Positions 26,278 to 30,419 of a stretch of 64,000 nt of DNA are shown here, in pieces. The notes under the pieces were generated by a model. It was not told the DNA's origin. It ran no database searches and saw only the letters and a list, made by a program, of their open reading frames with translations. Source of the DNA: Escherichia coli (lineage in GTDB: Bacteria > Pseudomonadota > Gammaproteobacteria > Enterobacterales > Enterobacteriaceae); NCBI RefSeq assembly GCF_050320075.1, contig NZ_CP190018.1. One strand, 5' to 3'. Position 1 is the first letter of the stretch. Each line of letters opens with the position of its first letter. The position numbers were made by a program, and so were the translations under genes.

Positions 26278-27045
26278 TTGATACCCGTAGAGCGTCGCCA
26301 AATCATCCTTGAGATGGTAGCTGAAAAAGGCATTGTCAGTATTGCTGAACTAACGGACAGAATGAATGTGTCACATATGACCATTCGTCGGGATTTACAA
26401 AAACTGGAGCAGCAGGGAGCCGTTGTGCTGGTGTCCGGAGGCGTCCAGTCTCCGGGACGCGTGGCGCATGAACCTTCTCATCAGGTAAAAACTGCGCTGG
26501 CAATGACGCAAAAAGCGGCTATTGGCAAGCTGGCGGCAAGTCTTGTTCAGCCGGGAAGTTGTATCTATCTGGATGCGGGAACGACCACGCTAGCGATAGC
26601 ACAGCATCTGATTCACATGGAGTCACTGACTGTGGTCACAAACGATTTCGTTATTGCGGACTACTTGCTCGACAACAGTAATTGCACAATTATTCACACT
26701 GGCGGTGCAGTGTGTCGGGAAAACCGTTCCTGTGTCGGGGAAGCCGCTGCGACCATGCTGCGCAGCCTGATGATTGATCAGGCTTTTATTTCTGCATCGT
26801 CATGGAGTGTGCGGGGGATTTCTACGCCAGCGGAAGATAAAGTCACGGTGAAACGGGCGATTGCCAGTGCCAGCCGCCAGCGAGTTTTGGTCTGTGATGC
26901 GACGAAATATGGTCAGGTGGCGACATGGCTGGCGTTACCATTAAGCGAGTTTGATCAGATTATTACAGACGACGGTTTGCCGGAGAGTGCCAGTCGCGCG
27001 CTGGCGAAGCAGGATCTCTCTTTGCTGGTAGCGAAAAATGAATAA
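26278..27045 (+). CDS. ygbI: DeoR-family transcriptional regulator YgbI
   Basis: Probable TTG start at 26278 with AAGGAAGGAG RBS 6 nt upstream (255 aa); the ATG at 26248 has no RBS. Confidence 0.88.
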   Translation: MIPVERRQIILEMVAEKGIVSIAELTDRMNVSHMTIRRDLQKLEQQGAVVLVSGGVQSPGRVAHEPSHQVKTALAMTQKAAIGKLAASLVQPGSCIYLDAGTTTLAIAQHLIHMESLTVVTNDFVIADYLLDNSNCTIIHTGGAVCRENRSCVGEAAATMLRSLMIDQAFISASSWSVRGISTPAEDKVTVKRAIASASRQRVLVCDATKYGQVATWLALPLSEFDQIITDDGLPESASRALAKQDLSLLVAKNE

Positions 27046-27068
27046 TGGCCTGCAATAACACCGGGTTA

Positions 27069-27094
27069 CTCATGCTTCACAGAAGAAGCATGAG
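27069..27094. terminator. Hairpin between convergent ygbI and pphB
   Basis: Perfect 10-bp stem CTCATGCTTC/GAAGCATGAG with loop ACAGAA. Confidence 0.6.
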
Positions 27095-27095
27095 A

Positions 27096-27752
27096 CTACT
27101 TTATTTTATAAAATGACAGCCGCCCGCTTTTCGGCGATCCGGTATCAATATAAATCTGGTTTGCGAACGTCTGAATGTTATCAAACATCATATGTCCAAA
27201 TATAAAATAATCAGCGCCGTTTATTTGTTGTAACTCGCCATTAAGCGATTTCTGCACACGATCAACAGGCCAGAGTAGTTCTCTCTCCGCTATTTCTTTG
27301 CCAAAGAGATATTCATTCCCCGGATAATCTGCATGTGCGATGACATATTTTATTATGTCGTTAGTGATTTCAATAATATGTGGAAGGCGATGAAATTTCA
27401 GCAACAGATTTATTGCTTCTTGTTGTTCCGTCTCATTTAATTCAAAGAACCAGTCGCCGCCGCTGGCAAGCCACATATTTCCATCGCCAGTTTCGAATGC
27501 ATCAAGCGCCATCGCTTCATGGTTGCCTTTAACCGATGTAAACCAGGGCTGGTTTAACAGGCGTAGTACGTTAAGACTCTCCGGCCCACGATCAATATTA
27601 TCGCCGACAGAAATAAGTAAGTCGGTTTCAGGGAAAAAAGAGAGTTGATGTAAGCGGGATTGTAATAATTGATAGTCACCATGAATATCACCAACGGCCC
27701 ATATATAACGATAGTGATGGGCATTAATTTTTTGATAGCGTGTAGATGGCAT
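27096..27752 (-). CDS. pphB: Serine/threonine protein phosphatase 2
   Basis: 218 aa, metallophosphatase motifs GDIHG, GDNIDRG, GNHE. Confidence 0.93.
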   Translation of the reverse strand: MPSTRYQKINAHHYRYIWAVGDIHGDYQLLQSRLHQLSFFPETDLLISVGDNIDRGPESLNVLRLLNQPWFTSVKGNHEAMALDAFETGDGNMWLASGGDWFFELNETEQQEAINLLLKFHRLPHIIEITNDIIKYVIAHADYPGNEYLFGKEIAERELLWPVDRVQKSLNGELQQINGADYFIFGHMMFDNIQTFANQIYIDTGSPKSGRLSFYKIK

Positions 27753-27857
27753 GGTTTTACCCTGTAAAATAAGATTTCCTATTATACAGGGTGTTTTTAT
27801 TTGATTCGTCTGTTGTCGTTAATATTCCCGATAGCAAAAGACTATCGGGAATTGTTA

Positions 27858-30419
27858 TTACACCAGACTCTTCAAGCGATAAATCCACTCCAGCGCCTGA
27901 CGCGGAGTCAGTGAATCCGGGTCGAGATTTTCCAGTGCTTCGACCGCAGGCGACGTTTCTTCTGGCACTGACAGCAAAGACATTTGCGTACCATCCACTT
28001 GCGTAGCGGCGGCGTTCGGCGAAATGCTTTCCAACTCACGCAGTTTTTGCCGTGCGCGCTTAATAACCTCTTTTGGCACGCCGGCCAGAGCTGCAACCGC
28101 CAGGCCGTAGCTTTTGCTCGCCGCGCCATCCTGCACGCTGTGCATAAAGGCAATGGTGTCGCCGTGCTCCAGCGCATCGAGATGCACGTTGGCGACGCCT
28201 TCCATTTTCTCCGGTAACTGGGTCAGCTCGAAATAGTGGGTGGCAAACAGTGTCAACGCTTTAATCTTATTCGCCAGATTTTCCGCGCACGCCCACGCCA
28301 GCGACAGACCATCGTAAGTGGACGTCCCGCGCCCAATCTCATCCATCAGCACCAGACTGTACTCGGTGGCGTTATGTAAAATATTGGCGGTTTCGGTCAT
28401 TTCCACCATAAAGGTTGAACGCCCGGATGCCAGATCATCCGCTGCCCCTACGCGGGTAAAGATGCGATCGATAGGTCCAATCTCGACTTTTTGTGCCGGT
28501 ACATAGCTGCCGATGTAGGCCATCAGCGCAATCAGTGCGGTCTGGCGCATATAGGTACTTTTACCGCCCATATTCGGACCGGTAATGATCAACATGCGAC
28601 GCTGCGGCGACAGGTTCAGCGGGTTGGCGATAAACGGCTCATTCAGCACCTGTTCAACCACCGGATGGCGGCCTTCGGTGATGCGAATACCCGGTTTATC
28701 AATAAAGGTCGGGCAGGTGTAGTTCAGCGTATAGGCCCGTTCTGCCAGGTTCACCAGCACGTCGAGTTCCGCCAGCGCGCTCGCGCTCTGTTGCAACGCT
28801 TCCAGATGCGGCAACAGCAGGTCGAACAACTCTTCATAAAGCTGTTTTTCCAGTGCCAGTGCTTTGCCTTTTGAAGTGAGAACTTTGTCTTCGTACTCTT
28901 TTAGCTCTGGAATAATGTAGCGTTCGGCGTTTTTCAGCGTCTGGCGGCGCATGTAGTTAATCGGTGCCAGATGGCTTTGTCCACGGCTGATCTGAATGTA
29001 ATAACCATGCACCGCGTTAAATCCGACTTTCAGCGTGTCCAGGCCGGTACGTTCACGCTCGCGGACTTCCAGACGCTCCAGATAATCGGTCGCGCCGTCA
29101 GCCAGCGCGCGCCACTCATCCAGCTCTTCGTTATAGCCCGATGCGATAACACCACCGTCGCGCACCAGTACCGGCGGTGTGTCGATAATGGCCCGCTCCA
29201 GCAGATCGCGCAGTTCGGCAAACTCACCCATCTTCTCACGCAGCGCCTGTACCGGAGCGCTATCGACATTTTCTAACTGCGCACGCAGCTCCGGCAGTTG
29301 CTGGAAAGCGTGACGCATACGGGCCAGATCGCGTGGGCGAGCAGTTCGTAAAGCCAGACGTGCCAGAATACGTTCCAGGTCGCCGACCTGACGCAGCACC
29401 GGCTGTAGCTCGGCGGTGAAATCCTGCAATGCGCCAATAGTTTGCTGGCGCTCAAGCAACACGCGGGTATCGCGCACTGGCATATGCAGCCAGCGTTTCA
29501 GCATACGACTACCCATTGGCGTTACAGTGCAGTCGAGCACTGAAGCCAGCGTGTTTTCCGCACCGCCCGCCAGGTTCTGAGTAATTTCCAGGTTACGACG
29601 TGTCGCGGCATCCATAATGATGCTGTCCTGCTCACGTTCCATGGTGATAGAACGAATATGCGGCAGGGTCGTACGTTGGGTATCTTTCGCATACTGCAAC
29701 AGACAACCGGCAGCACAAAGTCCGCGCGGCGCGTTCTCGACGCCAAAACCGACCAGATCGCGGGTGCCAAATTGCAGATTCAACTGCTGGCGCGCGGTGT
29801 CGATTTCAAACTCCCACAGCGGGCGACGGCGCAGGCCGCGACGGCCTTCAATTAACGACATTTCAGCAAAATCTTCTGCATACAGCAGTTCCGCCGGATT
29901 AGTGCGTTGCAGTTCTGCCGCCATCGTTTCGCGGTCAGCCGGTTCGCTCAGGCGAAAACGACCGGAACTGATATCCAGCGTCGCGTAGCCGAAACCTTTG
30001 CTGTCCTGCCAGATAGCCGCCAGCAGGTTGTCCTGACGCTCCTGCAACAGGGCTTCATCGCTGATGGTGCCTGGCGTAACGATACGCACAACTTTGCGCT
30101 CAACCGGACCTTTGCTGGTCGCCGGATCGCCAATTTGTTCGCAGATGGCAACGGACTCGCCCTGATTCACCAGTTTGGCGAGGTAGTTTTCCACCGCATG
30201 GTAGGGGATCCCCGCCATCGGGATCGGCTCTCCCGCGGAAGCACCGCGTTTGGTCAGTGAAATATCCAGCAGCTGCGAGGCGCGTTTCGCGTCGTCATAA
30301 AACAGTTCGTAAAAGTCACCCATCCGATAGAACAGCAGGATCTCGGGATGCTGGGCTTTCAGCTTGAGATACTGCTGCATCATGGGCGTATGGGCATCGA
30401 AATTTTCTATTGCACTCAT
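27858..30419 (-). CDS. mutS: DNA mismatch repair protein MutS
   Basis: 853 aa, Walker [10 protein letters not shown]; E. coli MutS. Confidence 0.98.

Follow-up and report, generated by a model that had tools for sequence, protein, structure and literature searches.

The 105-bp gap between mutS and pphB of Escherichia coli carries two inverted repeats, designated IR1 and IR2. As stem-loops, they probably protect the 3' end of mutS mRNA at a leaky terminator that is assisted by Rho and overlaps the promoter and the ribosome-binding site of pphB. The repeats are read in this way because of a mapped transcript end in K-12, the Rho data available for the same site and the pattern of 3' ends described by Dar and Sorek (2018). 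IR1 and IR2 thus mark a gene boundary in a familiar way and do not constitute a novel type of regulator.

The mutS-pphB gap and its two repeats

The window, i.e. the entire stretch of 64,000 nt that was analysed, is E. coli DNA. The sequence examined here matches strain CFSAN061763 without any difference, and its identity to K-12 is about 96%. Both genes are encoded on the minus strand. mutS (27858-30419, 853 aa) was assigned from the ORF list and from the annotation in matching E. coli genomes and ends with a TAA stop codon at 27860-27858. pphB (27096-27752, 218 aa), taken from the ORF list, encodes a serine/threonine phosphatase. The gap between them comprises positions 27753-27857.

IR1 (27824-27852, minus strand), the stop-proximal hairpin of the mutS 3'-UTR, was defined by sequence and folding. 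It starts 5 nt past the mutS stop codon and has two perfectly matching arms, ATTCCCGATAG (27824-27834) and CTATCGGGAAT (27842-27852), with a 7-nt loop between them. In the predicted fold, the 11 perfect pairs are extended by a 12th U.G pair, so that the loop shrinks to 5 nt. IR2 (27759-27792, minus strand) was defined by sequence, folding and K-12 3'-end mapping. Its arms, ACCCTGTA (27759-27766) and TACAGGGT (27785-27792), are 18 nt apart and form on the sense strand an 8-bp outer stem, ACCCUGUA/UACAGGGU, to which a 6-bp inner stem is added. Only 6 nt separate IR2 from the pphB ATG. In the mutS-sense direction, the order is hence TAA, 5 nt, IR1, a 31-nt linker, IR2, AAAACC and the ATG of pphB. 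The linker (27793-27823, minus strand) is A-rich, G-poor and conserved with few variable columns. IR2 also contains two putative start signals of pphB on the minus strand. TATAAT (27781-27786), a perfect match and the candidate -10 box, spans the 5' arm and the loop of IR2 and ends 28 nt upstream of the ATG. AGGG (27760-27763), a Shine-Dalgarno-like motif, is located within the IR2 3' arm 7 nt before the ATG.

Folding, chance and strand preference

Perfect inverted repeats with arms of at least 11 nt and loops of 3-20 nt were found at two places only in the 64-kb window. By calculation, about 4.5e-4 such repeats would arise by chance in 105 bp (105 x 18 / 4^11). A 136-nt sense RNA has a predicted folding energy of -46.7 kcal/mol compared to -20.3 +/- 3.4 kcal/mol for shuffled sequences (z = -7.7), and none of 200 shuffles equalled it. 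When folded alone as sense RNAs, IR1 reaches -17.6 kcal/mol (z = -7.6) and IR2 -17.2 kcal/mol (z = -5.1). Both are predicted to be less stable as antisense RNAs, with -15.8 kcal/mol for IR1 and -14.0 kcal/mol for IR2.

With respect to the stem-loop, both IR1 and IR2 have what an intrinsic terminator needs, a stable, G+C-containing hairpin. A canonical intrinsic terminator of mutS was nevertheless rejected, as the U tract of about 7-8 nt that should follow the stem is missing on the transcribed strand: IR1 is followed by AUUAACGA and IR2 by AAAACCAU on the sense strand. In agreement with this, a terminator scan returned no minus-strand site in the mutS-pphB gap. The first-pass annotation had located both repeats exactly and had rightly noted the lack of a clear U tract when they are read in the direction of mutS. 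Both structures are far above chance. U-rich runs on the plus strand after the repeats (see below), TATAAT within IR2 and AGGG in the IR2 3' arm are features that go beyond it.

An Rfam 15 scan of 27000-28600 (E <= 10) yielded chance-level matches only, with 13-19 bits against thresholds of 39-100. A dispersed palindromic repeat of the REP/BIME type was discarded as well, since the IR1 31-mer is present in a single copy per genome.

The 3' end of mutS mRNA in K-12

In K-12, mutS extends from 2,857,093 to 2,859,654 and pphB from 2,859,760 to 2,860,416. The K-12 gap differs from that of the window at three positions, none of them in a stem. All transcript data discussed here were obtained in K-12 and were taken from tables of high-throughput studies rather than from experiments aimed at this locus.

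The Rich_TTS table of SMRT-Cappable-seq lists a transcript on the forward strand from 2,857,024 to 2,859,753 that comprises b2733 only and is designated 'novelTTS'. 246 reads were counted at the start site and 23 ended at the TTS, while 10 passed through and 4 ended within 50 bp; the median read-through was 375 nt (Yan et al., 2018). Of the reads that arrive at the mutS 3' end, roughly one in four thus continues well beyond it. The TTS at 2,859,753 coincides with the final base of the 3' arm of IR2, window position 27759; no end at IR1 is found in the TTS list. In the operon table of the same study, b2733 appears alone and together with b2734 in a 'novel' operon b2733|b2734 that has the same start site (Yan et al., 2018). 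A start for pphB only is not found in this table, where pphB is listed solely as a read-through product. Likewise, the Cappable-seq supplements (Ettwiller, 2016) contain no pphB start, neither by the coordinates of either genome version nor by gene name. Oligo-dT mispriming as the source of the SMRT-Cappable-seq end was rejected by reasoning: Only four A follow the end, and the richer AAATAAAAA run 35 nt upstream does not give any listed end.

In a bicyclomycin experiment, a Rho termination region has been reported with the best coordinate 2,859,755 on the plus strand of K-12 (supplementary file 2 of Adams et al., 2021). This coordinate corresponds to window position 27757, which is 2 nt from the end of IR2. 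The upstream/downstream read numbers were 71/39 without and 69/172 with bicyclomycin, and the Rho score was 4.54 with p = 2.7e-10 (Adams et al., 2021). Rho scores were calculated in windows of 800 nt, so the bicyclomycin effect may partly reflect de-repression of a pphB promoter instead of read-through from mutS. Literature searches on the mutS-rpoS region and on terminators of pphB and mutS revealed nothing specific to this gap. The element is already present in published high-throughput tables, and no paper was found that treats it individually.

A probable leaky end of mutS assisted by Rho

Rho-terminated mRNAs have been found to end directly after stable stem-loops that lack a U tract. Such ends arise when exonucleases trim the diffuse ends left by Rho until the stem-loop shields the RNA from PNPase and RNase II, and C is enriched over G downstream of these protective stem-loops. 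Furthermore, terminators can switch between intrinsic and Rho-dependent modes via their U content (Dar and Sorek, 2018; PMC6061677). At the mutS-pphB boundary, a C-over-G-rich stretch on the sense (minus) strand (27583-27860, C/G 1.1-2.4) is a candidate Rho loading region. From the gap to about 27583, the C/G ratio is mostly at least 1.4 per 78-nt window and reaches 2.4 compared to 0.91-0.96 for mutS and pphB, and the rise covers the gap and the first ~190 nt of pphB.

The following course of events would be consistent with these data. The 105-bp gap would serve as the 3'-UTR of mutS and at the same time carry the start signals of pphB; within it, IR1 and IR2 fold as hairpins of the mutS-sense RNA. 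RNA polymerase would pass both hairpins and proceed into pphB RNA that is AT-rich and, in its 5' part, richer in C than in G. Rho would halt a large share of the transcripts in this part, with the C-rich stretch as its presumed loading site. Subsequently, 3'-to-5' exonucleases would presumably shorten the tails until they encounter a stable hairpin, and the first one on their way is IR2. In this manner, the mutS mRNA would acquire its discrete end at the base of IR2, while IR1 would provide a second barrier directly downstream of the stop codon. The smaller part of the transcripts continues and gives the mutS-pphB co-transcript. A σ70-dependent pphB promoter silenced by H-NS would reside in the same DNA, its putative start site being deduced from the candidate -10 boxes. 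Alternatively to trimming, transcription may terminate directly at IR2 despite the missing U tract.

A leaky, Rho-assisted terminator would account for the clean end of mutS, a repair gene of essential function, without a classical terminator, and for a weak co-expression of the adjoining AT-rich phosphatase gene. No long-standing question is opened by IR1 and IR2. They provide an example of a terminator hairpin that is kept by structure while the U tract comes and goes. In addition, the gap is the mutS-proximal edge of the mutS-rpoS region, for which the sampled arrangements comprise insertion of a tetratricopeptide-repeat (TPR) gene, an IS1 insertion and a deletion that reaches rpoS. Each examined variant has its own hairpin at the same spot behind the mutS stop codon.

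Conservation in E. coli and other lineages

The first-pass annotation had proposed a comparison of strains, in which poor conservation would have spoken against a role of the repeats. Poor conservation is excluded: Of 5,426 complete E. coli genomes, 5,201 carry the mutS-pphB gap with an identity of 95-100%, and the median is one place per genome. The exact 31-mer of IR1 was recovered from 4,187 E. coli genomes, once from each, and it likewise occurs once per genome in all 4,258 genomes with a match. Two IR1 variants were encountered: In O104:H4, an apical A-to-T change causes a mismatch, and in ZH193, a T-to-C change converts the 12th U.G pair into C-G. Among seven E. coli-type alleles, gap identity amounts to 89-98% compared to 73-93% at the third codon positions of pphB; the noncoding gap ahead of pphB is better conserved than the pphB gene. 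Variable columns are found at 4 of 52 paired versus 14 of 52 unpaired positions (Fisher p = 0.018, seven alleles). When ten alleles are considered, the outer stems are unchanged, and TATAAT and the A tract are also invariant. No base pair is altered in both partners among the E. coli-type alleles, and 21 of the 26 pairs are constant, so that the structural support there consists of conservation alone.

Species-representative genomes were scanned with PphB for synteny. The order mutS-pphB was found in Escherichia, Pseudocitrobacter, Superficieibacter and UBA5654. In every one of five lineages, a strong hairpin is located 4-9 nt past the mutS stop codon; the sequences differ, and a CCCG/CGGG core is common to them. 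When the lineages are aligned on this core, six stem positions display compensatory double changes, a cross-genus covariation that presupposes homology of the stop-proximal hairpins. The five wobble pairs seen at the lineage level are, without exception, G.U pairs when read in the mutS-sense RNA; plus-strand RNA would have an A.C mismatch in their place. Both the structure-preserving changes and the sense-strand G.U pairs argue that IR1 represents, in E. coli, a 3' hairpin of mutS that is kept as an RNA structure. The stop-proximal hairpin is also present in alleles that have a TPR gene or a reverse-strand gene downstream of mutS; in the TPR-gene allele, it reads TGAGCCCCGA-N7-TCGGGGCTCA. Judged by these alleles with other downstream genes, the hairpin is an element that travels with mutS. 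In Escherichia sp. E1V33, the mutS hairpin is followed by a canonical U tract.

IR2 is distributed differently. It was found only where pphB directly follows mutS, and it is missing from the TPR-gene allele, where pphB comes 24 nt after the TPR gene. TATAAT is located 28-32 nt before the pphB ATG in all lineages, in three of them as TGnTATAAT; in the three lineages other than that of the window, its flanks are unrelated. In Superficieibacter, it is likewise enclosed by a hairpin of unrelated sequence, CGTGAAA-N18-TTTCACG.

Several arrangements at this locus deserve mention. About 4% of the complete E. coli genomes lack the standard gap, and the TPR-gene allele is one reason for this. In E. coli S1-ISR-02-A (L002, 3304-4295) and in a Pseudocitrobacter MAG (L006), an 864-bp TPR gene is located between mutS and a divergent pphB, and homology with the window breaks off 2 nt past the mutS stop codon. 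E. coli 53_142304 (L003, 742-3907) carries a deletion that fuses a 3'-truncated mutS to a truncated rpoS, so that the mutS-rpoS region is gone. Since both mutS and rpoS are annotated as pseudogenes, this strain is probably a double mutant in mismatch repair and RpoS. In E. coli EH10-18-47 (L019, from ~437 onward), IS1A has inserted 2 nt past the IR1 3' arm and parts the hairpin from the remainder of the gap. Escherichia sp. E1V33 (L008, 5333-6000) has a 668-bp mutS-pphB gap with a reverse-strand ORF convergent with mutS, whose product has a signal-peptide-like N-terminus (MLRYLYAFVLVFCFFTSNVQA...). The mutS-pphB gaps of Superficieibacter (L011, 5781-6000; L012, 5783-6000) contain three sense-strand copies of ATCGGG, shortened to ATCGG in L012. 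The L011 copy directly before the pphB ATG (CTATCGGGAAT) is an exact 11-mer match to the IR1 3' arm of E. coli. These copies could be due to shared descent, or they could represent a repeated site or alternative pairing partners.

The pphB start region

In Genomic SELEX, an in vitro approach, an RpoD-holoenzyme SELEX-chip site and an H-NS site were assigned to the mutS>pphB spacer. The promoter predicted there, TTAACG-17-TAAAAA, corresponds to 27822-27817 and 27799-27794 of the window and lies in the linker (Shimada et al., 2014). The GC content of pphB is 40.9% compared to 56.2% for mutS. Between the window and K-12 (L015), PphB is only 92% and MutS 99.6% identical. pphB looks horizontally acquired or fast-evolving.

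Because TATAAT and the Shine-Dalgarno bases are located inside IR2, complete folding of this hairpin is restricted to RNA that was started upstream and has passed through mutS. This is the basis for a tentative reading, which can coexist with that of a Rho-assisted terminator: IR2 might mainly be a translational mask or insulator for pphB. RNA derived from mutS might bury the pphB Shine-Dalgarno motif so that the co-transcript stays untranslated, and the untranslated pphB RNA might in turn invite Rho. RNA from pphB's own promoter might start inside the hairpin, lack the 5' arm and be translatable. In the modelled read-through RNA, AGGG in the IR2 3' arm is wholly paired, with a pairing probability of 1.00, whereas modelled leaders from candidate pphB starts at ~27787 or 27775 fold weakly, with overall energies of -9.7 and -4.1 kcal/mol; GGG, however, is still predicted to be paired, though weakly, in these short leaders. 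Both TATAAT (27786-27781) and TAAAAA (27799-27794) predict a start inside or past the IR2 5' arm, but SMRT-Cappable-seq knows pphB as a read-through product only and not by a start of its own. The absence of IR2 from the allele with the inserted TPR gene would fit a mask, and so would the Superficieibacter hairpin that encloses TGTTATAAT in a different sequence; yet that hairpin ends 15 nt before the ATG and leaves the ribosome-binding site uncovered. Altogether, the modelled pairing suggests masking of pphB on the co-transcript in the style of IS10 fold-back inhibition. A more elaborate version appears rather doubtful. According to it, IR2, which has the -10 box and the ribosome-binding site of pphB in opposite arms, would be a promoter-embedded discriminator that keeps mutS-derived RNA folded and untranslated and passes it to Rho, while RNA from the H-NS-silenced pphB promoter would be open and translatable. 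If true, this would represent an IS10-type protection from outside transcription at the boundary between a core gene and an island, present in a different sequence form in Superficieibacter. A horizontally acquired phosphatase would then be insulated from the constitutive mutS promoter.

Plus-strand and protein-binding alternatives

It appears unlikely that the two hairpins are intrinsic terminators of the plus strand that stop antisense RNA from the pphB island or from ygbI before it enters mutS. On this strand, the U-rich GTTTTTATTT directly follows IR2 and TGTTATT follows IR1, and the terminator scan lists IR1 as terminator-like. The A tract that gives rise to the opposite U tract is invariant in ten alleles, and a promoter could account for it as well; in Superficieibacter, too, AAAAA is found ahead of the hairpin in the sense direction. 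Antisense RNA does exist within pphB in K-12, where a Rho-dependent antisense 3' end was mapped at 2,860,217 on the K-12 minus strand. No 3' end on the plus strand of the window, near 2,859,71x in K-12, is contained in the tables searched. Structure also speaks against plus-strand terminators: Both hairpins are less stable as plus-strand RNA, the wobble pairs of the IR1 lineages would all become A.C mismatches there, and the outer arms of IR2 are 18 nt apart with 3 G-C pairs only in the outer stem. Even less can be said for a small plus-strand RNA within the gap, which we regard as highly improbable. A promoter-like match TTTACC-18-TATTAT (27756-27785) is present on this strand and could drive an RNA of 70 nt that ends in a hairpin with a U-rich tail, formed by IR1 plus UUGUUAUU, and the linker is conserved. 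However, promoter-like matches are no more frequent in the region than in shuffled sequences (3 versus 2.5), its hexamers are the reverse complement of conserved IR2 sequence, no Rfam family matched, and no such transcript occurs in the tables searched.

The first-pass annotation had left open whether the repeats are protein binding sites or RNA structures that control read-through from mutS into pphB. The latter has gained substance by the K-12 end at the base of IR2, by the co-transcript and by the 4.5-fold effect of bicyclomycin, while the protein-site half of the proposal was not borne out. That the palindromes are operators at which a dimeric DNA-binding protein regulates pphB or mutS is very improbable, although the 11-bp arms of IR1, 7 bp apart, form a perfect palindrome, Genomic SELEX places RNA polymerase and H-NS in the mutS-pphB spacer, and the same approach adds pphB to the list of new CRP targets. 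What is retained in other genera, through compensatory changes, is the hairpin and not the sequence, and G.U pairs are meaningless for duplex DNA. IR1 occurs in one copy per genome, and neither repeat resembles the CRP consensus when inspected by eye. An operator half-site should be conserved across taxa and recur at other targets, whereas the arms here change from genus to genus. In the 64-kb window, including the vicinity of the regulator gene ygbI, there are no half-site copies beyond chance, and a search with the IR2 arms yielded no extra copies beyond chance either. Binding of the σ70 holoenzyme of RNA polymerase and of H-NS is that of a promoter in AT-rich DNA and not of an operator formed by these repeats.

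Two observations on neighbouring transcript ends are added. The Rho-dependent antisense 3' end in pphB (Adams et al., 2021) corresponds approximately to position 27295 on the plus strand of the window and has a Rho score of 5.9, which implies that antisense transcripts coming from the direction of ygbI extend into pphB, where Rho ends most of them. Between the convergent stop codons of ygbI (27045) and pphB (27096), a 10-bp perfect hairpin, CTCATGCTTC-N6-GAAGCATGAG, is located at 27069-27094. Its U-rich tail ACTACTTTATTTTAT is present only on the ygbI (plus) strand, so that pphB, too, ends at a hairpin without a U tract.

Comparison with known systems

The proposed leaky, Rho-assisted mutS terminator shares most properties with the class of 3' ends defined by Dar and Sorek (2018; PMC6061677). 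A stable stem without a U tract is present, and in K-12, the steady-state 3' end is located immediately after this stem at IR2. Downstream transcription increases 4.5-fold upon inhibition of Rho by bicyclomycin, measured in 800-nt windows that do not separate read-through from de-repression of a pphB promoter, and C-over-G-rich, rut-like RNA follows downstream. The switch via U content described for this class is mirrored by the mutS hairpin, which has a U tract in E1V33 and lacks one in E. coli. In contrast to the class, two hairpins are arranged in tandem here, and IR2 is preceded by an A tract, which is usually absent. The A tract, which appears as a U tract in RNA of the other strand, hints at a function of IR2 that is additional to, or distinct from, that of the class.

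Canonical and bidirectional intrinsic terminators are resembled in hairpin size and energy, and convergently shared terminators in the A tract on one side of IR2 that provides a U tract for the opposite strand. Unlike in these terminators, a sense U tract is lacking, the mutS end is found at the foot of the stem and not within a U tract, and no opposite-strand end is mapped in the tables searched.

A further parallel is found among insertion sequences. Fold-back inhibition, as described by Davis, Simons and Kleckner in 1985 and in work from the Reznikoff laboratory, reportedly shields the transposase genes of IS10 and IS50 from outside transcription. As in these elements, the 3' arm of an inverted repeat, here IR2, is predicted to pair with the ribosome-binding site. 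The own promoter, too, appears to start between the arms, so that only read-through RNA would form the hairpin; such a start is predicted for pphB by both -10 candidates and is not listed in SMRT-Cappable-seq. Unlike the genes of IS10 and IS50, pphB is a chromosomal phosphatase gene and not a transposase gene, and fold-back inhibition serves here as a working analogy, not as a class to which IR2 is assigned.
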